Below, one piece after another: positions 2,518-29,882 of a stretch of DNA of 64,000 nucleotides (positions are counted from its first letter, which is position 1; the number at the start of each line of letters is the position of its first letter). This stretch comes from Candidatus Anderseniibacteriota bacterium. Lineage in GTDB: Bacteria > Patescibacteriota > Andersenbacteria > UBA10190. The notes under the pieces were generated by a model that searched no databases, was not told where the DNA came from, and saw nothing but the letters and a program-made list of their open reading frames with translations. The DNA lies in assembly GCA_016197005.1 (NCBI GenBank), contig JACPWO010000001.1, positions 346,544-410,543 of the forward strand, written 5' to 3'. Both the position numbers and the translations under genes were made by a program.

Positions 2518-3330
2518 ATGATCATTGACGCTCACACCCATATCGGCGCCATGGGTAAAGATGACCGCAATGTGACGGTGGCCGATTTACTGCAATCAAT
2601 GGATGAGGCAGGAATTGACATGTCGTTGATTCTCGCGAATGACATTGCCGTGTCGGATGATTGGCGTGGTATGTCAGCTGATGACATTCTGACTCAATGT
2701 GCAGGGAACGATCGAATAAAAGTGATTGGTAATATTACTATTAGTCGAGATATCAATGATCAGCTTCTACGACTCAGAGAACATGTGGAAGCTGGGGTTG
2801 TTGTTGGTATTAAACTGTACCCTGGCTATGAAAACTTTTATCCGTCAGACGAGCGACTGAAGCCAGTGTATGAGTTTTGCCAAAAATTTAATATTCCGGT
2901 CGTGCTGCACACAGGGTTTCTTCTGCAAGGATCTCCCGGTATTCAGGAGCAAGCCCATCCTAACAGTATTGATAAGATCGTTAATCTTTTCCCCGAGCTT
3001 ATTTTCATAATGGCTCATTTTGGCAATCCATGGACAGCTGAAGCAGCCAGGGTTATAGCCCAGCATCAAAACATTTACGCTGATCTTTCTGGTTTTTTTA
3101 CGGAATACGATGAACATATCTCTCTAGAAGAAAAGGCTGATTTTTACCAGAAAATGAAAGAATTTATTAGTATTACTGGCAATCTAAAGAAATGCCTCTT
3201 TGGTACTGATTGGCCACTCTACAGTCAGAAAGAATATCTGGCAGCAGTACAAGAACTGCCTATGAAAGATGAGGAGCGTGATCTCTTTTTTTGGAAAAAT
3301 TCGAGCAGGATATTTGGTCTGGCAGCATAA
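2518..3330 (+). CDS. Amidohydrolase-family metal-dependent hydrolase (TIM barrel)
   Basis: N-terminal IIDAHTHIG metal-binding motif typical of amidohydrolase_2 / TatD-like folds. Internal His/Asp residues are at expected positions. Confidence 0.6.
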   Translation: MIIDAHTHIGAMGKDDRNVTVADLLQSMDEAGIDMSLILANDIAVSDDWRGMSADDILTQCAGNDRIKVIGNITISRDINDQLLRLREHVEAGVVVGIKLYPGYENFYPSDERLKPVYEFCQKFNIPVVLHTGFLLQGSPGIQEQAHPNSIDKIVNLFPELIFIMAHFGNPWTAEAARVIAQHQNIYADLSGFFTEYDEHISLEEKADFYQKMKEFISITGNLKKCLFGTDWPLYSQKEYLAAVQELPMKDEERDLFFWKNSSRIFGLAA

Positions 3331-3352
3331 TTTTCTAATTCAATCTTATGAC

Positions 3353-4294
3353 TTATCTGCTAAGCGGTGTCACCGTATACTTCTTTAAAATCTGACAAGG
3401 ATAATAGCCTTTTTTAGCTTCCCTTAATCCAGGCAGTCCAGCATCCTGTTCGAGATTTAAGTATTGACACCCGCGCGTTGCCAGCGCTCGGGCCGTCTCC
3501 TGCCTCAAATAAGGATAGACTCCTGTAAATGAAATTGCATCGGCTTTTTCAAAATGCAAAAGAGCATAAGACTTTCCAACTACTTCGCTGATAGAAAATC
3601 CAATTAGCTGTTTATTAACGAATATCCCAATAGTAATAAGTTGAAATGACTTAGCATGTTTCAGAAGGCGATGAAATGGAAGAAACTCATCCGTCTCCTG
3701 CGTGTTAAACCCTTTTTGTTTTGCCCAGAATGAAAATAGTTCTTGAATCATCGTCTGAACATCAGGATCATTTAAATCACACTCATTCGTCGTTGACCGA
3801 TATAGCTTGCGGAAACGGTTTACGAAATTTCGCTTTCCGCGTAGGGCATGACTTCTGTATGTCATGAGTTCAGGGATAGACAGAATATAATCAAAATTGT
3901 TTGGGTCCTCCTTAATGGTAAACTGATCCGCTCTGATTCCATTGATGCATTCCTCAGGCACAAGACGTAATTTCTTCTTCAAACCTTTGTTGTCAACAAA
4001 AGCAAATAGCTGGTTCAGAGCTTCTTGGGATAGATGACGGCTTAAGAATGAATAAAATGGCTTTCCGGTAAAGTAGTCAGTAAATCGTACTATGAGGTTT
4101 TCTTCAAGCTGGGATAACTGTATTTCATCCTTTACGTTCCAAATCCATAAACTAGTAAAGTTGTAGTCTGAATAAGGCAAAAAAGATTGCGTAAAGGATT
4201 CAATCGCAAGGTGGTCAGCGAGCTGTAATTTCTTGAAATTAGGGAATTGAGGAATCACGTTCGTCATACTATTGCAGTAATCCTTGTTTTTCAA
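3353..4294 (-). CDS. Conserved hypothetical, DUF2156-like (MprF C-domain / VlmA-like aminoacyl-tRNA-dependent transferase fold); paralog of 16605..17534
   Basis: N-terminal pattern FPNFKKLQLADHLAIESF...YSDYNFTSLWIWN resembles the start of DUF2156 / LPG_synthase_C proteins of about 300 aa. There is a clear paralog elsewhere in the window. Family assignment is from memory, not a search. Confidence 0.45.
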   Translation of the reverse strand: MKNKDYCNSMTNVIPQFPNFKKLQLADHLAIESFTQSFLPYSDYNFTSLWIWNVKDEIQLSQLEENLIVRFTDYFTGKPFYSFLSRHLSQEALNQLFAFVDNKGLKKKLRLVPEECINGIRADQFTIKEDPNNFDYILSIPELMTYRSHALRGKRNFVNRFRKLYRSTTNECDLNDPDVQTMIQELFSFWAKQKGFNTQETDEFLPFHRLLKHAKSFQLITIGIFVNKQLIGFSISEVVGKSYALLHFEKADAISFTGVYPYLRQETARALATRGCQYLNLEQDAGLPGLREAKKGYYPCQILKKYTVTPLSR

Positions 4295-4349: not shown

Positions 4350-5426
4350 ATGAACCATACCCCTACAACTGTGAATTCTTACAATGAATGGGATCCTCTG
4401 GAGGAGGTCATTGTTGGCGTTGTTGAGGGCTCAACCATTCCCCAGTGGCATGTGACGCTTGAGGCAACAATGCCAAAAAAATATTGGAGCCTATTTCGTC
4501 AAAAAGGCGGAAAATTGTTTCCAGAGGGTCAAATAACTGCGGCAAAAAAAGAACTTGATGAATTTTGTCGTTTATTGGAATCAGAAGGAGTTACTGTCCG
4601 TCGTCCTGATACAATTCCTTTCAATAAACCTTACTCCTCTCCAGAATGGACTTCTCACGGCGGATTATATGCTGCAATGCCGAGAGACATATTACTAGTC
4701 ATAGGAAACGAAATAATTGAATCGCCTATGGCTTGGCGATCCAGATATTTTGAGATTGAAGCCTATCGTTCACTTTTGAAGGATTACTTTGCAAAAGGAG
4801 CAAAGTGGAGTTCAGCACCCAAACCATTGCTGGGTGGTAAACTTTATAATGATGCCTATGGTAAAAACCAAACTCAGGACAAATTAGAATACGCAATCAC
4901 TGAACATGAACCTGTCTTTGATGCCGCAGATTTCATACGCTGCGGCAGAGATATTTTCGTACAGCAAAGCAACGTCACTAACCAATTAGGAATTGAGTGG
5001 TTGCAAAGACACTTGGGTAGTACTTACAGGATTCATACGCTTAAGTTTGAAGATAAACACCCAATGCATATCGATGCAACTTTTATGCCGCTAGCCCCAG
5101 GAAAGCTCCTCATTAATCCTGAGAGAGTCGGGCAGATTCCTTCAATGTTTAAGGGCTGGGATATTTTGACTGCACCGCGACCATCTATTCCAGGTGAACA
5201 CCCTCTTTATTTTACGAGCAAATGGGTAAGCATCAATGTCCTGATGCTCGATGAAGAAAGAGTGATTGTGGAGAAAAATGAATTACCGTTAATACATTCC
5301 TTCAAAAGCTGGGGTTTTAAAGTAATCCCTTGTAGTTTCCGTAATTTCAATACTTTTGGTGGTTCATTTCATTGCGCCACAGTGGACATTCGGAGAAGAG
5401 GTACGCTCCAATCATATTTTGACTAA
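4350..5426 (+). CDS. Amidinotransferase (AGAT / StrB1 family)
   Basis: N-terminal NEWDPLEEVIVG, catalytic-His region PMHIDATFMPL and C-terminal catalytic Cys in GGSFHCATVD. Length 358 aa is typical for the family. Confidence 0.75.
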   Translation: MNHTPTTVNSYNEWDPLEEVIVGVVEGSTIPQWHVTLEATMPKKYWSLFRQKGGKLFPEGQITAAKKELDEFCRLLESEGVTVRRPDTIPFNKPYSSPEWTSHGGLYAAMPRDILLVIGNEIIESPMAWRSRYFEIEAYRSLLKDYFAKGAKWSSAPKPLLGGKLYNDAYGKNQTQDKLEYAITEHEPVFDAADFIRCGRDIFVQQSNVTNQLGIEWLQRHLGSTYRIHTLKFEDKHPMHIDATFMPLAPGKLLINPERVGQIPSMFKGWDILTAPRPSIPGEHPLYFTSKWVSINVLMLDEERVIVEKNELPLIHSFKSWGFKVIPCSFRNFNTFGGSFHCATVDIRRRGTLQSYFD

Positions 5427-18430: not shown

Positions 18431-18479
18431 GTTTCTATTATACTAAAAGACTGGTTTAAAAACACGAGCAGTGAGCTTT

Positions 18480-18698
18480 TTACCGAAACACTTTAAATAT
18501 CTCAGCCAGCGATACATTAAGCGCTCGGGCAATCTTTTGGATATTTACAATCGATACGTTCTGCTCGCCCCGCTCGATTGATCCAATGTAGGTGCGATGA
18601 AGTTTTGACTTCATGCCCAAGCCCTCTTGCGATAGCCCCTGCTGTTCTCGTAGGTCGCGAATGCGCTGACCAAAGTAGTATCGAATATCCCTAGCCAT
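18480..18698 (-). CDS. XRE-family HTH transcriptional regulator
   Basis: LSQEGLGMKSKLHRTYIGSIERGEQNVSIVNIQKIARAL is a canonical HTH_3 motif. 72 aa. Confidence 0.75.
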   Translation of the reverse strand: MARDIRYYFGQRIRDLREQQGLSQEGLGMKSKLHRTYIGSIERGEQNVSIVNIQKIARALNVSLAEIFKVFR

Positions 18699-18716
18699 GC
18701 CCTAAATGCTGGCCGG

Positions 18717-18737
18717 CTGTAGTCAATAGTTCTACAG
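18717..18737. promoter_or_regulatory. Palindromic candidate operator CTGTAG-N9-CTACAG in the divergent promoter region
   Basis: ggCTGTAGtcaatagttCTACAGtcaataac has inverted hexamers with an internal TCAATA direct repeat. It lies between the start of the minus-strand XRE gene (18698) and the plus-strand gene at 18820. Confidence 0.3.
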
Positions 18738-18819
18738 TCAATAACTAGCGTTTTTACAGGGAAGCTGATACTGTGAGCTTACAAAAACGAGTTACCAACA
18801 GCTTCATTGAAGCACAACA

Positions 18820-19488
18820 GTGGGCTCAACCCGTCAAATAAAAGTGCTTAACCTTAATAATAATCATATGAACGAGAACAACGCTCAAAACCAACAACGC
18901 AAAAACTGGTTCGCCCGGCACAAAATTATGACGGGTATTATGGTAGTGATTATCTTCCTCATCGTGCTTGGCATGATTGGCGGTAGCGGTGATCAGTCAG
19001 GCAGCTCGACCTCTACTCAAAAGACAAGTTCGGGTGGTAGTGAGGCAGAGACAACCACCGCGACTGCTCCTGCGGCAACCGTGGCTAAGATCGGTGAGCC
19101 GGTGACTGATGGTGACCTGACCTTCACCGTCACGGGTGTCACCACGAAGCAAACTCTTGGCAACACATTCACCCAGCGTGATGCCCAAGGCACCTTCCAT
19201 GTAGTGATGCTCAAGATCGAGAACAAGGGCAAGGAAACAAAAACAACTGATAGCTCAATGTTCAAAATCGTGGACAGCCAAGGTAGAGAATTTGAACGGT
19301 CTATCGACGGGCAAACGGCTGTCGGGTTATCACAAGGAAAAGTTGATCTCTTCCTGCAGCAGATTCAGCCAGGACTCTCGGTCACCGGAGATATTGTCTT
19401 CGACCTCCCTGCCGATGCGACCGGTACACAGTTAATAGTCAAAGGCAGTCTCTTCAGCAAGGGAGCCAAGATTCTGCTGGAGCAATAG
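18820..19488 (+). CDS. DUF4352 domain protein, N-terminal TM anchor
   Basis: TM helix IMTGIMVVIIFLIVLGMIG, a Ser/Thr-rich linker, then LTFTVTGVTT...FHVVMLKIENKGKE...FKIVDSQGREFE...GDIVFDLP, typical of DUF4352. The true start is possibly the internal MNENNAQ. Confidence 0.6.
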   Translation: MGSTRQIKVLNLNNNHMNENNAQNQQRKNWFARHKIMTGIMVVIIFLIVLGMIGGSGDQSGSSTSTQKTSSGGSEAETTTATAPAATVAKIGEPVTDGDLTFTVTGVTTKQTLGNTFTQRDAQGTFHVVMLKIENKGKETKTTDSSMFKIVDSQGREFERSIDGQTAVGLSQGKVDLFLQQIQPGLSVTGDIVFDLPADATGTQLIVKGSLFSKGAKILLEQ

Positions 19489-19574
19489 GCTTGCTGAATC
19501 TTGGAGTTAAAATCCGCCTATGCCCGGGAGGGTACAGGTGGATTTGGGTGTGCCCAACGAAAGCGTTACTATGA

Positions 19575-20687
19575 GTGCATATGCCCGTCTTAAAAGAAAC
19601 AAAACGAAGCATGAAGAACACACCAAAGCGGTGGGCTGCCTCTGGGAATCAGAGATACTTGAGTGATCAGCAAAAAGAAGCATTGGGGCATGCAGTAAAT
19701 TTTCAGAACAAACTCTCCAGCATCTCAAACGCAGCTAATGTGTCCCTTACCAAACGGCAGGTTGATGTGGTTGTCCAAAGCCCAGCCTTACAAGTCGCTG
19801 TGCAGGTACAGGAAAATATCATTTCGATCCAGGATACGCATGATGCACTACTTGGTGGTTTTAGAGCTGTTGTACAAGTCAGCGAAGCTATCGGGCATGT
19901 CTTTAAGGCATACGAGCAGCAATTCAGCGCAATTGCCGAAGTCGCTAATAATATTGGCCGAACAGTAAAAACCGTGGGTGAGTGGCACAGCCAGGTTGTT
20001 GAGCGCGGAAACCTTCTGGGACATCAACTGCAGGTTGTGGGCGAGAATTTTAAATTAATCGCGGAGAGCATCTCCTTACAATCACCTAATACAAATCCCG
20101 AAATATACCCCGTGCGAGCTACATACCGAGAGGCTTCGGTCTCCGTTTGCCTCGAGCGGGACCAAGTGGAAGAAATAGCTGAACTCGCTGCACACTTGGT
20201 CTTAGGAAAACTGGAGGAGAAGCTTTTGTTATCCCTTAAGCCATTATCTGACCAGCCATCAATCGCGCCTGCGCTTGAAATAACAGCCCCATCACTAACG
20301 AGCACCGCCCTAACAGAAAAAAAGGGGGTTCAGTGGGGAGGGATTCTTATTGATCTTGACCATGCCACGTTGCAGTACAAAGAAAATCCCGCCATTGAAA
20401 TTGTGCCAAAAAATGCGGAAATAAAATGGCTGCTTTGTGTTCTTCGCAAAGAAGGAGAAGTGGCCGAGCATACTGAGATCGCCGTGGCCACCGGCATCAT
20501 TACTGATCAGCAGTCAGATAAAACCAATCAGGCCGTGGCACGACGAGTCCAGTTTATTAGAAAACGTGTTGTCCTTGTTTTAAAAAGTGCTGGTATGACA
20601 CCGGCAGAGATCAAGCAAATGCTCCTTTCTAAGCCTGGAATTGGCTATGCAGCAAGGAGTATTAATAATCACACCCATGCCGCATAA
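19575..20687 (+). CDS. Hypothetical protein (370 aa), GC-rich, island-encoded
   Basis: Long ORF with GC content matching the island. No recognisable motifs. It is followed by a strong rho-independent terminator. Confidence 0.4.
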   Translation: MHMPVLKETKRSMKNTPKRWAASGNQRYLSDQQKEALGHAVNFQNKLSSISNAANVSLTKRQVDVVVQSPALQVAVQVQENIISIQDTHDALLGGFRAVVQVSEAIGHVFKAYEQQFSAIAEVANNIGRTVKTVGEWHSQVVERGNLLGHQLQVVGENFKLIAESISLQSPNTNPEIYPVRATYREASVSVCLERDQVEEIAELAAHLVLGKLEEKLLLSLKPLSDQPSIAPALEITAPSLTSTALTEKKGVQWGGILIDLDHATLQYKENPAIEIVPKNAEIKWLLCVLRKEGEVAEHTEIAVATGIITDQQSDKTNQAVARRVQFIRKRVVLVLKSAGMTPAEIKQMLLSKPGIGYAARSINNHTHAA

Positions 20688-20715
20688 ATAGCCACACATA
20701 CGCCGTCGATCCCCT

Positions 20716-20752
20716 AAAACTGCTCCTCCATACTAGGAGCAGTTTTATTTTT
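20716..20752 (+). terminator. Rho-independent terminator
   Basis: aaaactgctcct-ccatact-aggagcagtttt followed by atttttaa: a 12-bp stem and 7-nt loop with a T-tract. Confidence 0.5.
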
Positions 20753-20764
20753 AATTACAAACCT

Positions 20765-22069
20765 ATGTCTAAAAAACGAAAGGCAGCAAAAAAGAAAAAC
20801 AAAAAGTTACAGGTGGTCTATGTTCCGATCGAGGAATTAAGGCCCGCCGACTATAACCCACGCAGGTGGGATGATGCGGCGATTGCGCAGCTACAAGAAA
20901 GCATTAAACGGTTTGGGGTGGTCGACCCCATAATCGTTAACTGCGCTCCCAACCGTCGCAATGTGGTAATCGGAGGCCACTTTAGGCTCAAGGTTGCTAA
21001 GGATCTTGGTATGACCGAGATCCCAGTGGTGTATGTCTACATTGCAAATATCGACATCGAAAAAGAGCTCAACCTGAGGTTAAACCGCAACACCGGCGCG
21101 TGGGATTTTAAACTACTCAAAAACTTTACCCTGGAGACTTTGCTCAATGTCGGCTTTGATGATACCGACCTCTCAAACATTTGGGACGATGTGTTGCAAA
21201 CCGAAGACGACGACTTCGATGTCGATAAGGCAGTCGCGGAAATTAAGACGCCCAAGACCAAACCGGGTGACATCTATCAAGTGGGCTCGCACACGGTAGG
21301 CTGTGGAGATTCTACTGACCCGACTTTCATTAAAAAAGTCATGGGAAAACTACAAGCCAGCATGGTGTACTGTGACCCTCCGTATAACATCGGGTTGGAT
21401 TACAACAATGGCCTCACCACGAAAGGAAAGTACCAGGGCCATAAAACTAAAGATCGTCTCACCAACAGTCAATACGCCACCTTGCTGTCTCAGACTATAG
21501 AAAACGCCTTGGCGGTATCTTACGACAATACACACGTCTTCTATTGGTGTGATGAGTCGTCAATCACCCTGATACAAAGTCTCTTCAATTATCATGACCT
21601 AAAGAATCGGCGGGTGTGTCTGTGGCTCAAGAATAACTTCAACATGACACCCCAGGTCGCCTTCAATAAAGTCTACGAGCCATGCATCTACGCCACCCGG
21701 GGAAAGCCATACCTCGCGCCTACAATCACCAACCTGAACGAGGTCATGAACAAAGAGGTTGGCACTGGCAACCGCCTAACTGATGATATCCTTGACCTCC
21801 TAAATATTTGGTTGGTAAACCGCGTAGCCGCGCAGGAGTACGAGCACCCGACCGAGAAGCCGCCGACCTTACACGAGAAGGCACTGCGCCGGTGCACGAA
21901 GCCTGGGGATGTCGTGCTCGATCTTTTCGGCGGCTCCGGCTCTACCCTCATTGCCTGCGAACAAATGAAACGACGGTGCGTCACGGTCGAACTCGAACCG
22001 GTGTTCTGCGATGTCATCATCAAGCGCTTTGAAGCCTTAACGAAAACCCATGCCAAAAAAATCAATTAA
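20765..22069 (+). CDS. ParB-like nuclease domain fused to a beta-class DNA (N6-adenine / N4-cytosine) methyltransferase
   Basis: N-terminal VVYVPIEELRPADYNPRRW...GVVDPIIVN is a ParB/Srx domain. The catalytic motif IV is VYCDPPYNIG. The AdoMet motif I, DLFGGSGSTLIACEQ, is near the C-terminus (order IV then I = beta class). Confidence 0.8.
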   Translation: MSKKRKAAKKKNKKLQVVYVPIEELRPADYNPRRWDDAAIAQLQESIKRFGVVDPIIVNCAPNRRNVVIGGHFRLKVAKDLGMTEIPVVYVYIANIDIEKELNLRLNRNTGAWDFKLLKNFTLETLLNVGFDDTDLSNIWDDVLQTEDDDFDVDKAVAEIKTPKTKPGDIYQVGSHTVGCGDSTDPTFIKKVMGKLQASMVYCDPPYNIGLDYNNGLTTKGKYQGHKTKDRLTNSQYATLLSQTIENALAVSYDNTHVFYWCDESSITLIQSLFNYHDLKNRRVCLWLKNNFNMTPQVAFNKVYEPCIYATRGKPYLAPTITNLNEVMNKEVGTGNRLTDDILDLLNIWLVNRVAAQEYEHPTEKPPTLHEKALRRCTKPGDVVLDLFGGSGSTLIACEQMKRRCVTVELEPVFCDVIIKRFEALTKTHAKKIN

Positions 22070-22811
22070 ATCTGGGGATGTTTTTCGGTTGGGTGCGCAC
22101 CTGTTGGGATGTGGCGATGCCCAGGATAAGGTCTTTGTAGATAGGCTGCTTGGTAAAGAAAAGATTAGCCTGGTACTTTGTGACCCGCCCTACGGCGTGG
22201 CGTATGTAGAAAATAAAAAAGGGTTTAATCCGAAGGGTAAAGAACACCGCGTCATCGTGAACGACCATGCACAAAGCGAGAGTGACTACCGGCATTTCAC
22301 ATACCAGTGGCTCGAAACAACCAAGACCCACCTTGCCCGCAAGAATTCACTCTACATTTTTAATTCGGACAAGATGCTCTTCGCCCTGCGCGACGGTATG
22401 CAAGATGCCGGAGTAAAGTTCGCGCAGTTATTGGTGTGGATTAAAAACCACGCCGTGGTCGGCCGGATGGACTATCTCCCCCAGCACGAATTGATTGCAT
22501 ATGGCTGGTATGGGACGCACGCTTTCCACAAAGCCAAGGATAAGAGCGTGCTGGTCTATCCGAAACCCAGCAAGAGCACGCTTCACCCGACCATGAAGCC
22601 AGTGGGGTTACTGCGTCGCCTCATTCTGAATAGCTCGAAGATTGGTGACGTAGTATACGACCCCTTTTTGGGATCAGGTAGCACGCTCCTGGCCTGTGAA
22701 CAGACGAAACGCGTCTGCTTTGGAATCGAGCTTGATCCGCACTACTGCCAAACCATCATGGATCGGTTTGAAAAACTCACGGGCATTACGCCCAAGAAAA
22801 TTAATCCTTAA
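22050..22811 (+). CDS. DNA methyltransferase, beta class (DPPY)
   Basis: VLCDPPYGVAY (motif IV) precedes DPFLGSGSTLLACEQ (motif I). It overlaps the upstream MTase by 20 nt. Confidence 0.8.
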   Translation: MPKKSIKSGDVFRLGAHLLGCGDAQDKVFVDRLLGKEKISLVLCDPPYGVAYVENKKGFNPKGKEHRVIVNDHAQSESDYRHFTYQWLETTKTHLARKNSLYIFNSDKMLFALRDGMQDAGVKFAQLLVWIKNHAVVGRMDYLPQHELIAYGWYGTHAFHKAKDKSVLVYPKPSKSTLHPTMKPVGLLRRLILNSSKIGDVVYDPFLGSGSTLLACEQTKRVCFGIELDPHYCQTIMDRFEKLTGITPKKINP

Positions 22812-22820
22812 AGCATCTGT

Positions 22821-23291
22821 ATGGAAAAGGTAGTCAGTAAAAACAAACAGGAGAAGCCGCCGGGCGCGGTCGAAGTCCGGCAGTCGAAACAAAAAGAAAT
22901 GTTCATCGAGCAGCTTAAGAAAACGCCTATCGTTCAGGTAGTGTGTGAGAAAATCGGCATCACTCGCACGACCTACTACCGGTGGCACAAAGCTGATCGG
23001 GAGTTCGCCGAAGCAGCGGACATGGCCTTGGCTGACGGATCGGGGTTGGTCAATGATTTAGCTGAAAGCCAGCTCATGACCGCTATCCGAGACGGCAACC
23101 TAACAGCCATCATTTTCTGGCTCAAGAATCATCACCGAGCGTATGCCAATCGCGTCGAGCTGTCGTTGCAACAACCGGTGAGCGAGCAACTCACGCCCGA
23201 GCAAGAAGCCGTAGTCAAAAAAGCCTTGGCTCTCGCCTCCCTCACGGAGCCGGAGCAAGAATCTAATTCTTCATCACAAAACCATGAGTAA
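22821..23291 (+). CDS. Putative terminase small subunit / HTH DNA-binding protein
   Basis: GITRTTYYRWHKADREF is an HTH. 156 aa. It lies immediately upstream of the large-terminase gene and overlaps it by 8 nt. Confidence 0.5.
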   Translation: MEKVVSKNKQEKPPGAVEVRQSKQKEMFIEQLKKTPIVQVVCEKIGITRTTYYRWHKADREFAEAADMALADGSGLVNDLAESQLMTAIRDGNLTAIIFWLKNHHRAYANRVELSLQQPVSEQLTPEQEAVVKKALALASLTEPEQESNSSSQNHE

Positions 23292-24750
23292 TAACATTTC
23301 AGACCCTGAAGTCATTCAGGAATTAATGAGTGACCGTACGGCTCGCTTGGCGAGTGCGCGGCAAAGTCACTACCTGTTCTTTCATCTCTATGAGGCTCGG
23401 TACGTCAAACACAAGACGGCGGAGTTCCAAAAGAACCTCTTCCGCATTACCGAGGACCAGAGCATCAAGCATGCGGCTATCGTCGCGTTTCGCGGATCAG
23501 CCAAGTCAACCATCATGACCTTATCGTACCCACTGTGGGCCGTGTTAGGAATTCAGCAAAAGAAATTTGTCTTACTGCTGAGCCAAACCCAAAATCAGGC
23601 ACGTTCTATGCTCATGAACCTGAAGCGAGAAATTGAGACCAATGACCTGCTGCGGGCAGACTTTGGTGCCCTCGAGTACCAAACGGACGAGTGGGGTCGC
23701 GATTCATTGGTCATTAAAAAGCACGGGGCTCGGATTATGGCTGCGTCTACAGAGACCAGTATTCGTGGACTGCGTCACGGAGAGCATCGCCCCGACCTTA
23801 TCATTGCCGACGACGTTGAGGATCAGAACTCTGTTAAGACACGCGAGGGACGCAACAAAACGTATAGCTGGCTCATGGGTGAAGTTATTCCGGCTGGCGA
23901 TGAGGGCACCAGGCTCATCGTGATTGGAAACCTACTCCATGAAGACTCCCTCTTAATGCGTCTCAAACATGATATTGCCGAGGAGAATCTCGACGGCATT
24001 TTCTGTTGGTACCCCTTGGTGGATAGCACTGGCAAAAGCCTGTGGTCAGGGAAGTACCCTGACCAGGCCAGTATCGACCGGCTTCATAAGAAGGTACCCA
24101 GCCGCGTTGATTGGGAGCGGGAGTATATGTTGAAAATTATCGCTACCCAAGAACAGGTCGTGCATCCTTCATGGATTCAGCCGTATAAGGAAATTCCAGT
24201 GGATACCCGACATTATCGGTATACCGCCATTGGTGTTGATTTGGCCATCTCCAAAAGTGATACGGCTGATTTTACCGCTATGGTGGCTGCTAAAGTGTAT
24301 GGCTCAGGTGAAGATATGCGGGTGTACATCTTGCCCCATCCGGTCAATGAGCGGCTGACGTTTCCGGAGCAAGTTGATCGTACCCGACTGTATTCGGATA
24401 CACTCGATAAGGCCTGGCTGTTTATTGAAGAGGTGGGCTACCAAAGCGCCTTAATCCAAGAACTCAAACAGCGGGGTTATACAGCCGAAGGAGTCAAGAC
24501 GCATGGGGCAGACAAGCGGTCGCGCTTGGCGATCGTCACCCACCTAATCCAAAACGGCCAGGTGTTATTCCCCGAGCATGGCTGCGAGGCCCTTATTCAA
24601 CAGCTGGTGGGCTTTGGAGTAGAGAGTCACGATGACCTGGCTGATGCCTTCGCGATCTTGATGCTGAAAGTGATGGAGAAAAATAACTTTAGTACCGGCA
24701 TGACTATCATCTGGTCGGGCGGGAGCGACTGGCTGCATCAAAACTTTTAA
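23284..24750 (+). CDS. Phage terminase large subunit (ATPase plus RNaseH-like nuclease)
   Basis: Walker A-like AIVAFRGSAKST and Walker B LIIADDVED. The C-terminal nuclease region has TAIGVDLAISKSD...HDDLADAF acidic residues. Confidence 0.75.
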   Translation: MSNNISDPEVIQELMSDRTARLASARQSHYLFFHLYEARYVKHKTAEFQKNLFRITEDQSIKHAAIVAFRGSAKSTIMTLSYPLWAVLGIQQKKFVLLLSQTQNQARSMLMNLKREIETNDLLRADFGALEYQTDEWGRDSLVIKKHGARIMAASTETSIRGLRHGEHRPDLIIADDVEDQNSVKTREGRNKTYSWLMGEVIPAGDEGTRLIVIGNLLHEDSLLMRLKHDIAEENLDGIFCWYPLVDSTGKSLWSGKYPDQASIDRLHKKVPSRVDWEREYMLKIIATQEQVVHPSWIQPYKEIPVDTRHYRYTAIGVDLAISKSDTADFTAMVAAKVYGSGEDMRVYILPHPVNERLTFPEQVDRTRLYSDTLDKAWLFIEEVGYQSALIQELKQRGYTAEGVKTHGADKRSRLAIVTHLIQNGQVLFPEHGCEALIQQLVGFGVESHDDLADAFAILMLKVMEKNNFSTGMTIIWSGGSDWLHQNF

Positions 24751-24883
24751 CCCCACTCCCTTTCCTTACACTCTGTGGCCTAATATGCGGCTTTGAGTTA
24801 CCTACAGCTTAGGCGACTTACCAACTGGATATGTGCACAAGGCAGCGGCACTGTGTCCTTACTAAGTCATATAACTAAGAGCC

Positions 24884-26164
24884 ATGCCCCCTACTCAATA
24901 TTGCCTCTACGCCCGGAAGTCCTCCGAGGACGATGAACGACAAGCCTTATCCATCGACTCGCAGATCAAAGAAATGGTGGCCGTCGCGCAACGTGAGAAT
25001 ATTGAGATCGCCGAAATTCGCAGAGAAAGTCATTCGGCCAAGGCTTCGGGGCAACGGCCGGTCTTCAATCAACTGCTCGGCGACATACGCGGCGGCATGT
25101 TCAGCGGCATCGTGGCCTGGGCACCTGACAGGTTGAGTAGGAATGCCGGGGATTTAGGAAGCTTGGTTGATCTGATGGATAGCAAGCACCTGGAAGAAAT
25201 TCGCACCCATGGACAAAAGTTCAGCAACTCACCGAATGAAAAGTTCCTGCTGATGATCTTGTGCAGCCAGGCCAAGCTCGAGAATGACAACCGAGGTATC
25301 AATGTTAAGCGAGGCCTCAAAAACAAAGCCGAGATGGGCGTGCGACCGGGAGTGGCACCACTGGGATATCTGAATGAACGGAGTCCCGATCGTAACAAGG
25401 GGAAAATAATTATCGACCCGATGCGAGCAACGATTATCAAGAACATGTTTCAGCATGTATCTGACTACGGAGCTAGCGGTAGGACACTCCTAAAATGGTT
25501 GAATAGCGAGGCTGGGTTTACTACCCGCAGCGGTAAGCGACTGACGCTGGGCGGCGTCTACAGAACATTACACAATGAGTTCTACTACGGCAGATTTGAG
25601 TACGGCGGGAAGTGGTATGACGGCACCCATGAGCCGCTCATAACTAAAGAGCTATTCGACGAGGTTCAGGAGCAACTAAAAACGGCACCTAAATCCCGAC
25701 CCGGCACGAAAGAGTTCGACTTCACCAAAATGATCCTCTGCGGAGGGTGTGGGTATGGCATTACGGCTGAGGAGAAATTTAAAAAGCGCCGGGATGGTTC
25801 GATCAAGAAGTATGTCTACTACCACTGCTCACGGTTCGACTACACGTGCAAGCAACCCTATGTCCGCGAGGACTTACTTCTCTCTCAGCTATTAACCCTG
25901 ATTGATCGGGTAGACTTAAGCCAGGTGGGAATCAAGAAAAAGTTGGAAGCTGAGATAGAGCGGCTACAAAAGTTCAGTGTTGGTATCCTCGGACATCGGC
26001 AATCAATAGTAGCGCCGAAAGTGGATACAAAAACGTATGCGAAATATGTCCTGCAGGAAGGTGGACGAGAAGAAAAACGAGAACTGCTCGGGTGCCTCAA
26101 GAGCAAACTCTATCTCAAAGATGAAATCTTAACCTTGAGTGAATCGGTAACGGAAAAAGTTTAG
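24884..26164 (+). CDS. Large serine recombinase (integrase)
   Basis: N-terminal catalytic region YCLYARKSSEDDERQALSIDSQ (Ser nucleophile). It also has a recombinase domain and a C-terminal Cys cluster CGGCGY...HC. 426 aa. Confidence 0.8.
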   Translation: MPPTQYCLYARKSSEDDERQALSIDSQIKEMVAVAQRENIEIAEIRRESHSAKASGQRPVFNQLLGDIRGGMFSGIVAWAPDRLSRNAGDLGSLVDLMDSKHLEEIRTHGQKFSNSPNEKFLLMILCSQAKLENDNRGINVKRGLKNKAEMGVRPGVAPLGYLNERSPDRNKGKIIIDPMRATIIKNMFQHVSDYGASGRTLLKWLNSEAGFTTRSGKRLTLGGVYRTLHNEFYYGRFEYGGKWYDGTHEPLITKELFDEVQEQLKTAPKSRPGTKEFDFTKMILCGGCGYGITAEEKFKKRRDGSIKKYVYYHCSRFDYTCKQPYVREDLLLSQLLTLIDRVDLSQVGIKKKLEAEIERLQKFSVGILGHRQSIVAPKVDTKTYAKYVLQEGGREEKRELLGCLKSKLYLKDEILTLSESVTEKV

Positions 26165-26185
26165 TCGGAGGTAATAATTTTTACC

Positions 26186-27085
26186 TTATATCTTTACCAA
26201 TTCCTCCCCCTGCACTTTATGCTGGGTGAAAAAGCGAAAGGTATCTGGTGACAGCGAATTAGTGGCTAAAGGATTATGAACTAAAATACAGTCCTCACCT
26301 AAACGCTTGGGGTGACGCAGAACAAACTCTTTAGAATAGATGACGGCACTAATGCCGGCATGAGCTGTATTACCAAAGAAATTCATTGGCACTGATCCGC
26401 CCTGCTTTTTTACTAATGAAATTCTCTGCGAGTAGTGAGAGTAAGGACTTCCAACGGTCTCACCTTTTTCCGGGGAAAAATCCATCGACAATGTGAGATG
26501 TCCTAAGCCAAAAAGACATTTGAATATTAATGGTAAATCCGTATCGGGGTAGTCAAAATTTCCGCGGTTAACCGCGATGATAAAAATGTCTTTCGGAGCA
26601 ACAATCCCTTTACTGAGATATTCCTGATATTTTATGAATTTCTCCTTTAAGGCGGCAGAGAGACGTAAGACCATTTCGTCTTCTGGCACCGAGTGAAGAC
26701 CTTCAGTTTGTACATTGGGCACCCTATCCGGGCCCGTTCCCTGGGCTGGAGCGATACATTCGATCCAGATAGTCTGGCCGTTTTTAAAAATCTTAATGTC
26801 TGGCCCCTTATTGCTCGAAGAAATTTGTATTCCATTGGCAATGAAAACGCAAGCGAGATACATCTCCCAAGTCCGTTGATGAAAATTCTTCTTAACCTGT
26901 CTCAAGAAATGACGATCTGCATAAGGCTCATAAGTTTTGTATAGCTCTTCAAATCGTTGCTTCCGGTCAGGAATTGATCCGCTGGCAATGTAATACTCGT
27001 CGTAAGCTGAATACTGAGCCTTCAAGACATTCAGCTCTTTATCACTTCGTACGGTTGGAAAGTTATCAGTGAACAGGGTCGTCAT
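26186..27085 (-). CDS. Hypothetical protein, island cargo
   Basis: 299-aa ORF with no recognisable motif. It sits between the integrase and the tRNAs. Confidence 0.4.
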   Translation of the reverse strand: MTTLFTDNFPTVRSDKELNVLKAQYSAYDEYYIASGSIPDRKQRFEELYKTYEPYADRHFLRQVKKNFHQRTWEMYLACVFIANGIQISSSNKGPDIKIFKNGQTIWIECIAPAQGTGPDRVPNVQTEGLHSVPEDEMVLRLSAALKEKFIKYQEYLSKGIVAPKDIFIIAVNRGNFDYPDTDLPLIFKCLFGLGHLTLSMDFSPEKGETVGSPYSHYSQRISLVKKQGGSVPMNFFGNTAHAGISAVIYSKEFVLRHPKRLGEDCILVHNPLATNSLSPDTFRFFTQHKVQGEELVKI

Positions 27086-27097
27086 GAGTAGCTCAAA

Positions 27098-27925
27098 TTA
27101 TTTCGGGGACAACGTCTGAGCTCTCTTGAACCTTTCACTGCCCATCATTTCTGCCTTGAGTTTTTTGTTTTGTGCCTCTAGATCTTTGAATCTAGGCAGG
27201 AAGTCGTCAACAAATTGAATTGCGTGGTACTTCTTATTGACCCCATAAAACAGGTCAAGAAGTCCCATCGCTATATTTGCTCCATACCATAAATGGCCTT
27301 TCACGTGATGATCATCTTCGAAATCAAAGAAGGGAGTGTGAAATTTTCCCTCTCTCAATAAAAACTTGAAATGCTGGAAGGCATACGCAAGATTGGCGTG
27401 GGCAAAAGATTTGTTAATCAGTTTTTTCGTTGTTTTGAGCGCATCTGATCCTGCCTTAAATTCTTGATCGAGCCACGCATCGCGTGCTTTCTGAAGTCTA
27501 TCTGGTATTTCAATCACACCGTCTTTATCTTCACAAAACCTGGCCTTCTCTTTAAAAGCCAGAGCGTAAGCTGCCCATGCCCCAGCTTCAACTACTTGGC
27601 GTAAATCCATTCCGGCTTGAACGCTATGTAATCGGACAGTGGAGAGTAAAGCAAGAGTATGATGTTTTTTAACCGACGAGAGGTATGCCATAAACATGAA
27701 TTTCTCCGGATCATCAACCGATTTTACAAAGTTGTTTAGTAGTGTATTGAATGCAGAGGCATGGGCAAAATATTCCCCGTATCGGTCACCTGCTGTTAGG
27801 AACATCTGTCGTTCACTATCGATGATGTCACCCATTGTTTTCTGTTTAAAATCCATATGAGGTTTTGAGAAAAAATAGCTAAATAGCTTGGATAATAGGG
27901 ATGAGATTCGAACAAAGAATAACAT
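27098..27925 (-). CDS. Hypothetical protein, island cargo
   Basis: 275-aa ORF. It forms a tight two-gene unit with 26186..27085 (12 bp spacer). No family recognised. Confidence 0.4.
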   Translation of the reverse strand: MLFFVRISSLLSKLFSYFFSKPHMDFKQKTMGDIIDSERQMFLTAGDRYGEYFAHASAFNTLLNNFVKSVDDPEKFMFMAYLSSVKKHHTLALLSTVRLHSVQAGMDLRQVVEAGAWAAYALAFKEKARFCEDKDGVIEIPDRLQKARDAWLDQEFKAGSDALKTTKKLINKSFAHANLAYAFQHFKFLLREGKFHTPFFDFEDDHHVKGHLWYGANIAMGLLDLFYGVNKKYHAIQFVDDFLPRFKDLEAQNKKLKAEMMGSERFKRAQTLSPK

Positions 27926-27960
27926 AAGAGGGTGGGTCGTTTAGACCCAAAACTATCGGG

Positions 27961-28047
27961 CGGACAGGGTGGGATTCGAACCCACGGAACCCTTTCGGGC
28001 TCAACACATTAGCAGTGTGCTGCTTTCGACCGCTCAGCCACCTGTCC
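27961..28047 (-). tRNA. tRNA-Ser (anticodon GCT), long variable arm
   Basis: Reverse complement GGACAGGTGGCTGAGCGGTCGAAAGCAGCACACTGCTAATGTGTTGAGCCCGAAAGGGTTCCGTGGGTTCGAATCCCACCCTGTCCG folds as a cloverleaf. Acceptor is GGACAGG/CCTGTCC, the T-loop is GGTTCGAATCC, and the anticodon loop is CTGCTAA. Confidence 0.85.
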
Positions 28048-28196: not shown

Positions 28197-28269
28197 GCGC
28201 CCATAGCTCAGCTGGTAGAGCACCTGACTCTTAATCAGGTTGTCCCAGGTTCGATCCCTGGTGGGCGCA
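28197..28269 (+). tRNA. tRNA-Lys (anticodon CTT)
   Basis: GCGCCCATAGCTCAGCTGGTAGAGCACCTGACTCTTAATCAGGTTGTCCCAGGTTCGATCCCTGGTGGGCGCA. Acceptor is GCGCCCA/TGGGCGC and the anticodon loop is CTCTTAA. Confidence 0.9.
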
Positions 28270-28316
28270 CATCAAAAAAATTGAAGAAGGCGTAAAATTG
28301 TGCTAATATGTAATAT

Positions 28317-29882
28317 ATGACGCGATGGAAACTTCCGTCTTTTTTGATCCTCTTCCTTCTACTTCCAGTTGTTGCAGAGGCTGCTCTTATTGATCAAGTA
28401 AATCAAGCTTTCCGCTCTGTATACGGCCGCACCCCGACTACTACCGAATGGCAGTACTGGGCGGGTAGAGTTCAAAATAAAGAAAAAACGACTTACGACG
28501 CGCTCGTGGGCGCTATGTCGTATCAAAAAGGGTCGACGGGAACCGCGGCAACTGTTACCGTTGCCCCCTCCTCTATTGCTGCCTCCAGTGTGTTTAAAAC
28601 GAGTCGCTCAGCTTATCCATCCTCTCATAACCCCAACTTTCTTCCTGAGGGAACACTTGTAAAATCTGCGAGTAAACCCCAAGTATTTTATATTCAAAAT
28701 GGCAATAAAAGTTGGGTGCTCTCAAGCATTCTTGATCGTTGGCTCGGTGAAAACCATTACTATAAACACGACATCATCCTTACCATCTCGGACGCAGACT
28801 TAGCACGGTACACGCAAACAAAGTCGGTAAACCCTATATACATCGGGAAAATCCTTCAACACCCCGCCGGCACACAGTATTTTATAGACGACAAATTGCG
28901 CAAACGAGAAATCTCTCCAAGTGTACGTGCCGCCTTTAAAATTCCCGCCGGTAACTTGTACCCAACATCAAGCGCACACTTAAGTGAATTCCCTACCGGT
29001 CCCGCTATTACGAAGGCAGACAAATATCCTGGTGGCATGATTGTATACACCGGACCCTACCACGGTGGGCGTTTCTGGAAGATAGAAGAGGTTGAAGCCG
29101 GCAAACTTATCAAGCGTCTTTACCTTACCGACTACATCTACGAAGCAGATGCTAACCCTGACGAAAGTCATCGCGCTCCCGCAATAGATGCTATCTTGGC
29201 TCGGCATGAACGCGGCCCAAATATCGAGAGATATCCGGACGGCTGGACAGCTAGTCTGGATGGGAAAATATTCGTTGTTGAAAACGGGAGCCTGAGACAC
29301 GTCGGCTCTCCGGAGATCCTCGCAGCGATGGGGCACAATCCCAAAAATGCACTTTCGGTCTTCCCTGAATTCCTACGAAAATATCCTCGCGGTTATGCCA
29401 TTACCGCCTTCAAAAGTATTGTAGGCAATACGAGTGGTTCCGTTGGCCCAGCTGCTGCGCCAAACACCTCTGTAAACCTCACGAAAGTCCGCCCCGCCAT
29501 TCGCGCTATCATCGGGGACATGAATAACATCTACTACAGCGTATTCGACAAAGACGTAACGGCTGCAGAGAACAAGTTCTGGGTGGACTATATATACAAC
29601 GGTGAAGTGGCAACAAAAGTTGATCTCGTTGCCGCAATGAAGCGCACGAAGACAACTGGCATAAAGCCTGCTCGCACTTCCCGTACCGCCACCTTGTCGG
29701 AATCGAGACTTGAATCTCATTGGTTCCCTTACTTGTTCTACTTCGTTCATCAGAAAGAGGCTTCACAAGAAGATAAAAACTATTGGTATGGCCGAATTCA
29801 AGCTGGTGACCGCGATACAATCGAAGAACTTGGTGGCACTATCCAGTGGATTAAAGACAACTTCGGCGCAACTCGCAAGTAA
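28317..29882 (+). CDS. Secreted hypothetical protein (521 aa) with signal peptide
   Basis: N-terminal MTRWKLPSFLILFLLLPVVAEAA is a signal peptide. No recognised catalytic motif. Confidence 0.5.
   Translation: MTRWKLPSFLILFLLLPVVAEAALIDQVNQAFRSVYGRTPTTTEWQYWAGRVQNKEKTTYDALVGAMSYQKGSTGTAATVTVAPSSIAASSVFKTSRSAYPSSHNPNFLPEGTLVKSASKPQVFYIQNGNKSWVLSSILDRWLGENHYYKHDIILTISDADLARYTQTKSVNPIYIGKILQHPAGTQYFIDDKLRKREISPSVRAAFKIPAGNLYPTSSAHLSEFPTGPAITKADKYPGGMIVYTGPYHGGRFWKIEEVEAGKLIKRLYLTDYIYEADANPDESHRAPAIDAILARHERGPNIERYPDGWTASLDGKIFVVENGSLRHVGSPEILAAMGHNPKNALSVFPEFLRKYPRGYAITAFKSIVGNTSGSVGPAAAPNTSVNLTKVRPAIRAIIGDMNNIYYSVFDKDVTAAENKFWVDYIYNGEVATKVDLVAAMKRTKTTGIKPARTSRTATLSESRLESHWFPYLFYFVHQKEASQEDKNYWYGRIQAGDRDTIEELGGTIQWIKDNFGATRK

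Follow-up and report, generated by a model that had tools for sequence, protein, structure and literature searches.

The 64-kb window analysed here, from the chromosome of a Candidatus Andersenbacteria member of the candidate phyla radiation (CPR, or Patescibacteria), carries an insert of about 9.5 kb (about 18466-27958) whose backbone encodes two DNA methyltransferases (MTases), a small and a large terminase subunit (TerS and TerL) and a large serine recombinase (LSR). An earlier note on this DNA treated the insert as a single curiosity. We find that it belongs to a large and coherent family, limited to Patescibacteria as far as organism names show, whose members we call MT-TerS-TerL-LSR elements. 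The insert is best read as an intact member of this island family and, with a confidence slightly better than even, as a helper-dependent, satellite-like island that would supply its own terminase.

A virion-less terminase family in CPR bacteria

Relatives of the window TerL number more than 3,600 at E<=1e-10 in the metagenome protein collection (a count which takes in phage TerLs), and the top 120 are 53-97% identical to it. More than 500 contigs from metagenomes and 264 from IMG/VR encode a relative, and all relatives bearing an organism name come from CPR bacteria, namely Andersenbacteria, Kuenenbacteria, Moranbacteria, Saccharimonadales, a Saccharibacteria metagenome-assembled genome and entries labelled 'Patescibacteria group'. 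Three long genome contigs repeat the block seen in the window, with a MTase (fused or not to ParB), a second MTase, TerS and TerL, and LSR close by. Over 10 kb on either side, no virion Pfam family was found in these three contigs, where the neighbours include ThsB-TIR, caspase, SduA, DruA, NurA/DUF87 and type IIG restriction-modification (RM) genes.

Using a 36-sequence TerL alignment, we fetched 160 loci from IMG/VR and metagenomes, called their open reading frames (ORFs) and clustered the 2,365 resulting proteins. Counted by locus, four clusters stand out, TerL (166), MTase (123), TerS (112) and LSR (79), every other family being found in 23 loci at most. In 76 loci LSR follows TerL on the same strand, separated from it by less than 300 nt in 32 of them and by inserted genes in the other 44. 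In the 30 loci where the block is contiguous, it spans 4.1-7.3 kb from MTase to LSR (median 4.8 kb) and is therefore too small to encode a virion. Compact copies (L149 and L099) consist of one small gene followed by MT-MT-TerS-TerL-LSR, and then a tRNA within about 220 nt.

Element architecture tracks TerL identity to the window. At about 44% identity and above, loci display the virion-less MT-TerS-TerL-LSR arrangement, whereas at 36-42% identity TerL is found in long co-directional arrays with virion genes, including a portal-MuF fusion (PF04860+PF04233), an HK97 capsid (PF05065), a protease-like gene and connector-like genes. The deepest split of a midpoint-rooted neighbour-joining tree of 165 TerLs coincides with this boundary: one clade contains 129 TerLs, the window TerL among them, with no portal, no capsid and 82 LSRs, and the other contains 36 TerLs with 23 portals, seven capsids and no LSR. 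The same virion-less block recurs in about 130 independent loci. The virion-less elements are therefore a distinct lineage that either descends from a tailed-phage group or is its sister, and some of the sister-clade phages have, ahead of their terminase genes, a MTase belonging to the same cluster. We found no earlier description of such an architecture in CPR bacteria in the literature, our coverage of which was incomplete, so that a prior account is possible.

The window TerL displays the features of a tailed-phage large terminase, with a Walker A motif (FRGSAKST), a Walker B motif followed by the catalytic Glu (DLIIADDVED) and the acidic residues of an RNase H-like nuclease (GVDLA and HDDLADA). 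Residues K74, D176/D177/E179, D319 and D450/D451 are invariant in 36 relatives averaging 56% identity. A search of the PDB by sequence gave no match for TerL, and a near-identity DNA search of the phage collection returned nothing. A comparison of TerL with deposited phages yielded no close relative, the best protein match (Haemophilus phage SuMu) being only 27% identical. The LSR comprises the three domains expected of its class (resolvase, recombinase and zinc ribbon), carries an N-terminal YARKSS motif and matches the SPbeta SprA/YokA, A118 and TP901-1 integrases in the PDB. The two MTases, TerS, TerL and LSR form a single co-directional operon, with partly overlapping genes.

These backbone genes have intact ORFs and evolve under strong purifying selection: dN/dS between the window and its closest relative, locus L009, is 0.035 for TerL, 0.081 for TerS, 0.057 for the second MTase (MT2) and 0.015 for LSR, and dN/dS between the window and another relative, L169, is 0.028 for TerL. 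That the ATPase and nuclease motifs are both conserved, alongside a cognate TerS, suggests that the terminase carries out real packaging. Seven loci (L015, L017, L018, L019, L020, L052 and L151) encode two full-length TerL paralogues in tandem, in the layout MT-MT-TerS-TerL-TerL-LSR (for example at 2581-4179 and 4200-5732 in L151). The paralogues are 55-67% identical to each other, and in the three pairs that we aligned (L151, L052 and L019) the Walker A, Walker B and nuclease motifs are intact in both copies. We know of no phage precedent for such a pair.

The operon is preceded by a regulator region, which contains an XRE-family regulator and a winged-helix protein in the window and a LexA/CI-type S24 peptidase repressor (PF00717) in at least 20 relatives; in 17 of these 20 loci, the S24 gene is divergent from the first MTase and lies 134-1080 nt from it. 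The window XRE gene falls in a cluster of 16 genes across family loci (c7). In four loci (the window and three others), XRE and DUF4352 genes form an opposite-strand pair located at differing positions in the elements, and by this recurrence the pair behaves as a cassette. Of 89 family loci, 21 have, in the 130 nt preceding the first MTase, a hairpin comparable to that found ahead of the window operon, against 6.7% of control upstream regions (an enrichment of about 3.5-fold); this hints at read-through or antitermination control of the packaging operon.

Variable cargo sits between TerL and LSR or, in the window, between LSR and the attachment end. Among 93 proteins of at least 100 aa encoded strictly between TerL and LSR, Pfam domains include ResIII (8), DUF4352 (6), N6_Mtase (5), Eco57I (5), RVT_1 (5), Helicase_C (5), PLD (4), SNase (3) and Ltp (2), and PADLOC detects RM, defence-associated reverse transcriptase (DRT) and related systems. 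The defence types represented are RM of types I, IIG and III, DRT-like reverse transcriptases and DUF4352/Ltp-type proteins, and no virion family occurs among the 25 commonest cargo Pfam families. Judging from these annotations, the cargo is variable and mostly defensive.

Many of these loci are catalogued as viral. Two IMG/VR contigs of 39-55 kb classed as viral, 3300032737_000190 (L021 and L034) and 3300033402_000781 (L037 and L040), each contain two separate elements, and locus L056 carries, 8 kb away, a partial second TerL copy which is 99.7% identical to the first. Virus calling based on TerL probably mislabels CPR chromosomal islands as viruses. If so, it would inflate 'viral' counts in CPR-rich metagenomes, and many of the IMG/VR entries used here would be islands.

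Boundaries and integration site of the insert

The left edge of the insert was fixed by comparison with sister Andersenbacteria genomes (L170-L173, e.g. GCA_001817065.1). Synteny with these genomes, at 80-83% nucleotide identity, ends at window position 18465, 35 nt beyond the start of AdoMetDC, and the XRE gene therefore lies inside the insert. At the same point, the sister genomes carry a type III RM system (a 705-aa N6/N4 MTase and an 895-aa ResIII protein), an HD protein and Abi_C; the AdoMetDC-side site is an island hotspot in Andersenbacteria. Comparison with relatives devoid of the insert, as the earlier note had advised, thus located the left junction but provided no clean attB, as another island occupies the site in the sister genomes.

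On the right, the insert abuts a tRNA-Ser(gct)/tRNA-Lys(ctt) pair. Locus L009 adjoins the same pair and its DNA is 86% identical to the window over 21964-26161. Past the LSR stop codon (26161) homology is lost until 27894, and the interval is occupied by a single unrelated 227-aa gene in L009 and by two ORFs in the window. In L169 (1-3839, corresponding to window 22821-26164), the host neighbours are different (glycosyltransferase, PPIase, rpoD and dnaG), and protein identity falls from 97% for TerL to 70% for TerS and only 60% for LSR, DNA similarity being lost past the LSR catalytic domain. As L009 lies at the same site as the window element and L169 at another, the sites of close relatives differ, and a change of site goes with a change of recombinase. 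The identity mosaic of L169, along with dS values which vary several-fold among backbone genes between the window and L009, shows that modules are exchanged between elements.

Other loci also associate LSR with tRNA genes. The LSR stop codon faces a tRNA 3' end within 300 nt in six of 70 loci, compared to 11 of 2074 for other ORFs. Of 50 loci, 11 have a tRNA within 1.5 kb of the LSR stop, in every case facing LSR, and eight of these are tRNA-Ser. In the window, L009, L099, L123 and L149, which belong to different hosts, tRNA-Ser is followed at a distance of 10-30 nt by the motif TAGT...GACCCA, and GACC[CG] accompanies 10 of 25 LSR-facing tRNAs against three of 23 others, a borderline difference (p=0.05). 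The right end of the insert likely lies at about 27894-27958, which would place both minus-strand ORFs in the cargo slot and make this segment the putative attachment region.

Two further similarities to tRNA sequences were observed near the junctions. The left junction (18459-18477) matches the anticodon arm of tRNA-Ser (28003-28021) at 15 of 19 bases in direct orientation, a score within the shuffled range that may be due to chance. A T-arm-like fragment, GTTCGAATCTCATCC, is located at about 27899-27913, some 45-60 nt past the 3' end of the intact tRNA-Ser, and is kept in L009 (about 5033-5050); it may be what is left of an earlier integration targeted to a tRNA.

Base composition also distinguishes the insert from its host. 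The backbone (18820-26164) has a GC content of 0.498, compared to 0.405 in the left host flank, 0.452 in the right host flank and 0.443 in the whole window. GC content at third codon positions (GC3) is a clearer signal than GC for telling insert from host: it reaches 0.56-0.62 for DUF4352, both MTases, TerS, TerL and LSR, 0.52 for the XRE gene and 0.45 for a 370-aa gene, while host genes lie at 0.35-0.48. The two ORFs past LSR have host-like GC3 (0.44 for the 299-aa and 0.41 for the 275-aa ORF) and the compositional block therefore ends at about 26.17 kb, in agreement with the limit of about 26.2 kb given in the earlier note. That note had also reported GC contents for two 60-nt samples, which we recomputed exactly (0.667 and 0.333) but which are unrepresentative of the whole regions; the shift is real, though smaller than it had stated. 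It had further held that uniform GC and codon usage would speak against an insertion, and both GC and GC3 do differ between backbone and host.

As the earlier note had claimed, portal, capsid and tail genes are absent from the insert. The insert does not display the portal, major capsid, tail and lysis genes that a complete prophage would carry contiguously with its terminase. No virion family was detected among the flanking ORFs scanned over 18 kb on the left and 36 kb on the right. These are ordinary chromosomal genes, for instance for two-component systems, AdoMetDC, acyl-AMP ligases, ATP-grasp and VanW-like proteins, ABC transporters and aminoacyl-tRNA synthetases, or ORFs unrelated to any virion family. 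The names attached to the ValRS, MetRS and ProRS of the host place it in Candidatus Andersenbacteria.

A proposed satellite-like life cycle and its alternatives

Under the helper-dependent reading, the island would be silenced by its repressor until induction or infection by a helper leads to expression of the operon. LSR would then excise the island, possibly with a directionality factor encoded by the helper or by the island itself, and TerS and TerL would recognise island DNA and package it into the procapsids of a tailed phage infecting the same cell. This helper might be a phage of the sister clade, in which TerL (36-42% identical) is encoded beside genes for a portal-MuF fusion and an HK97 capsid. 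Once in a new cell, the operon, being unrepressed, would provide methylases, which would protect the incoming DNA, and LSR, which would integrate the island beside a tRNA 3' end (tRNA-Ser(gct) for the sub-lineage of the window). The island would repay its host by bringing anti-phage and exclusion genes. This reading gains support from the mobility of the elements between sites, the existence of a sister phage clade, the repressor-controlled operons and the defence cargo. The suggestion of the earlier note, a phage satellite with its own packaging specificity, is thus the best-fitting one and has comparative support, helper dependence and packaging being the parts of it that we can only propose.

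Several observations weigh against such a life cycle. No helper phage is co-resident in any of the loci examined, and terminal overlaps indicative of a circular or excised form were found in none of the fetched loci. No replication gene (primase, replicase or helicase) was found among the window ORFs or as a conserved cluster across loci, and the source of packaging substrates such as concatemers is therefore hard to explain. The att direct repeats expected by the earlier note did not emerge: between the junction regions, the best direct or inverted repeat or half-site scores 22, against 21 +/- 2 for shuffled sequences (direct repeats are not expected for a serine recombinase). The right boundary may instead fall directly after LSR, at about 26165, and the window XRE gene may belong to the DUF4352 cassette rather than encode a master repressor. 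Furthermore, ORF calling was crude (greedy, with genetic code 11), the loci were sampled by TerL similarity, and membership in IMG/VR rests on TerL itself and is no independent evidence of encapsidation.

The alternative that we regard as the main rival, unlikely as it is, grants the terminase another role: in situ packaging of the adjacent chromosome, in the manner of lateral transduction or of gene transfer agents and with capsids encoded elsewhere, or anti-phage interference with the packaging motor of an invader, by competition or poisoning, LSR serving only to move the island. The lack of a replication module fits this explanation, as does the position of LSR at the end of the packaging operon, which is compatible with late or no excision. 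Defence genes dominate both cargo and neighbourhood, tandem TerL paralogues with intact motifs in seven loci would be odd for simple packaging, and PMC12829572 describes lateral transduction of defence genes mediated by PICIs (phage-inducible chromosomal islands) and phages. However, no PADLOC model matches TerS, TerL or LSR, the conserved ATPase and nuclease motifs and the cognate TerS suggest genuine packaging, and capsid genes were seen neither within +/-10 kb in the three large contigs nor in the 64-kb window. One could also imagine, with less plausibility, a plain LSR integrative island moved by transformation or some other route, with MT-TerS-TerL as a passenger, a fragment of phage origin without a role in transfer. 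Natural competence is attributed to CPR bacteria, and the mosaicism of L169 shows that blocks are exchanged; yet a passenger would not be expected to exceed the rest of the element in conservation across about 130 loci, nor to be its most strongly constrained gene, and it is the linkage of TerL to LSR that defines the clade. We consider this explanation improbable.

Two further possibilities assume that the element is, or was, a virus. The earlier note had left room for a decayed prophage, that is, a temperate phage with a serine integrase which has lost its structural, lysis and replication genes, MTases, terminase and integrase being the debris. The phage derivation of TerS, TerL and ParB-MTase, the MT-TerS-TerL order shared with sister-clade phages and the failure to find virion genes are all consistent with decay. 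None of the backbone ORFs is disrupted, however, and their dN/dS ratios (0.015-0.08) indicate sustained constraint. The same 'truncation' would moreover have to be shared by some 130 loci which form their own TerL clade with zero portals and capsids, LSR abuts TerL in a tight operon although no sister-clade phage has such an LSR, and close copies lie at different sites with different cargo. Given intact ORFs, purifying selection and a conserved virion-less clade, we reject this very improbable scenario. Hardly any credence can be given to a complete, extremely divergent minimal virus, whose structural genes would be hidden among unannotated ORFs. Several ORFs do lack detectable homology (the 370-aa and 275-aa ORFs and many in relatives) and structure prediction failed for the 370-aa protein, but no unannotated family is conserved across the clade, and the compact copies L149 and L099 have room for a single small gene besides the block before the tRNA is reached. 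In addition, the C-terminus of the 370-aa protein is predicted to be a DNA-binding winged helix and its N-terminal half to form long helices (with low confidence).

Returning to the satellite-like reading, known systems close to the islands include capsid-forming PICIs (cf-PICIs), which have 11 core components, including major capsid, head-tail adaptor and connector, and primase-replicase, and are found in Proteobacteria and Firmicutes (PMC10085698). Like these, the insert is a small integrative island with its own TerS and TerL and accessory cargo, which would need a helper to provide the remaining virion components. Unlike them, it has no capsid, protease, portal, adaptor, connector or primase-replicase gene detectable in Pfam and PHROG scans, and the 129 members of its clade are devoid of portal and capsid clusters; of the cf-PICI components, the large terminase is present, and the capsid/protease/portal and adaptor/connector sets are not. 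The MT-TerS-TerL-LSR family also differs by its paired MTases and by the inclusion of LSR in the terminase operon. PICIs proper have a median size of about 9.5 kb, no TerL, a primase-replicase module and usually capsid-morphogenesis genes, and tyrosine and serine integrases are exchangeable in their definition by SatelliteFinder (PMC10085698). The insert resembles PICIs and Staphylococcus aureus pathogenicity islands in size, integrase, regulator, TerS-based redirection of packaging and defence cargo, but TerL is the most conserved gene here and neither a replicase nor a cpm gene was found. SatelliteFinder criteria applied to the insert recover an integrase and TerS, no primase-replicase and no capsid-morphogenesis gene, that is at most three of the five core components. 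As for a PICI regulation module, an XRE helix-turn-helix (HTH) and a winged helix are present, with no AlpA, MerR or Stl family hit in Pfam and PHROG scans.

The PICI-like elements (PLEs) of Vibrio cholerae encode their own RepA; to our knowledge, they have no terminase and are restricted to that species. PLEs are described as using a large serine recombinase as integrase (PMC9638900), and they are reported to excise and replicate upon ICP1 infection and to hijack ICP1 structural and packaging proteins. The insert shares with them an LSR integrase and, putatively, the phage-parasitic and population-protecting role of PLEs, but no homology beyond the recombinase superfamily. The SPbeta SprA, A118 and TP901-1 integrases have the same Resolvase, Recombinase and zinc ribbon architecture and give significant matches, although similarity is distant (E about 1e-10 at best) and the family LSR ends a terminase operon. 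The family LSR is often located 95-222 nt away from the 3' end of a tRNA oriented towards it, a kind of target that is not classical for these integrases. The temperate phages of the sister clade (13-55 kb in IMG/VR, such as L054, L062, L076 and L085) are linked to the islands by TerL and, for several of them, by the upstream MTase, but differ by their portal-MuF, HK97 capsid, protease-like and connector genes within long structural arrays and by the lack of an LSR of this cluster. Lastly, EPIPs, a satellite class recently proposed in Mycobacteriaceae, have a gene set that differs from that of the island. The family thus combines an LSR, as in PLEs, with its own TerS and TerL, as in cf-PICIs, lacks capsid and replicase, and adds paired methylases.

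A broader proposal is that MT-TerS-TerL-LSR islands are an unrecognised, CPR-wide class of phage parasites, with a full terminase and no capsid or replication genes, and a principal vehicle of defence systems between ultra-small episymbionts. We hold this to be possible, with a confidence somewhat short of even. Tandem TerLs and tRNA-adjacent LSR integration would then be new mechanistic features. In a more radical version, the terminase may package in situ, the islands being dedicated lateral-transduction engines in CPR genomes. Patescibacteria represent a large share of bacterial diversity, and their phages, mobile elements and immunity are little known. The islands, if they behave as proposed, would offer a concrete route by which RM, DRT and further defence genes move horizontally among reduced genomes, represent a new phage-satellite architecture (a terminase without capsid or replicase), and provide compact serine integrases with natural tRNA-adjacent targets, which might serve as genetic tools in CPR bacteria.

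Gene map and accessory genes of the insert

All ten gene calls and both tRNAs of the earlier note were borne out by ORF listing, hidden Markov model (HMM) scans and ARAGORN (Table 1).

Table 1. Features of the insert and its right-hand tRNA genes (window coordinates)
Feature	Position	Strand	Evidence or remark
Left junction of the insert/variable region	18466..18479	.	host synteny ends at 18465
XRE-family HTH regulator, 72 aa, divergent from DUF4352	18480..18698	-	PF01381 (HTH_3) E=1.2e-16
Operator-like inverted repeat CTGTAG-N9-CTACAG and overlapping direct repeat AGTCAATA	18717..18737	.	repeat search
DUF4352 protein, hydrophobic N-terminal segment	18820..19488	+	PF11611 E=1.3e-28; phrog_806 E=1e-37
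Near-orphan 370-aa protein (358 aa if start = 19611)	19575..20687	+	no family hit
Terminator-like hairpin, 13 pairs and T-run	20715..20747	+	just upstream of the MTase-terminase-recombinase operon
ParB_N-N6/N4 MTase fusion, 434 aa, core gene	20765..22069	+	PF02195 E=1.5e-11; PF01555 E=2.8e-30; phrog_498 E=2e-98
Second N6/N4 MTase (MT2), 253 aa	22050..22811	+	PF01555 E=5.7e-31; 20-nt overlap with first MTase
TerS-like HTH protein, 156 aa	22821..23291	+	phrog_309, 4044, 24579 (best E=1.5e-11); PF13022; 8-nt overlap with TerL start
TerL, 488 aa	23284..24750	+	phrog_38 E=1.6e-73; PF17289 (Terminase_6C)
LSR, 426 aa, last backbone gene	24884..26164	+	PF00239 E=1.7e-20; PF07508 E=4.7e-14; PF13408 E=1.6e-7
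Cargo slot gene 1, PD-T7-1/PD-T7-5-like, 299 aa	26186..27085	-	PADLOC PDLC04073 E=2.1e-16, PDLC04110 E=1.8e-15; phrog_8571
Cargo slot gene 2, 275 aa, no family hit	27098..27925	-	cluster c18
tRNA-proximal conserved segment, candidate right attachment region	27894..27958	.	hairpin GGGTCTAAACGACCC 27934-27948; T-arm-like fragment ~27899-27913
tRNA-Ser(gct), 3' end faces LSR, integration landmark	27959..28047	-	ARAGORN
tRNA-Lys(ctt)	28197..28270	+	ARAGORN

Next to the XRE gene, the earlier note had described a palindromic operator. The inverted repeat does exist, but its arms are only 6 nt long, and it overlaps an 8-nt direct repeat; an operator function is plausible but not statistically compelling. 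The DUF4352 protein has weak matches to Sie-like PHROGs and is likely the product of an exclusion-type or surface accessory gene.

The 370-aa protein has only three homologues among 5.8 billion proteins. Its residues 237-350 match the C-termini of many 220-250-aa proteins (with sub-threshold Trans_reg_C hits), and these C-terminal residues, about 110 in number, appear to form a divergent OmpR-like winged helix; the AlphaFold2 model of the whole protein was unusable (mean pLDDT of 37). One homologue sits directly upstream of ParB-MTase in L174. An HMM of the C-terminal domain revealed only one further element, L092, with the domain before the MTase, and no conserved 'first gene' family could be established from this search. 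We read the 370-aa protein as a candidate regulator of the packaging operon, rather than a capsid protein or a replicase.

Of the two cargo ORFs, the 299-aa one encodes a candidate anti-phage protein by its similarity to PD-T7-1/5, and a homologue follows LSR in L161. The 275-aa ORF has no family hit in Pfam, PHROG and PADLOC scans. Its cluster is represented in seven loci (five without the window duplicates L001 and L002), including L006, L101 and L161, at varying positions. Directly to the right of tRNA-Lys, a 521-aa ORF (28317-29882) gives a weak DUF4214 hit and matches nothing in PHROG, NCBIfam or PADLOC. Its GC content (0.48) is higher than that of the left flank, and it may originate either from the host or from another island.

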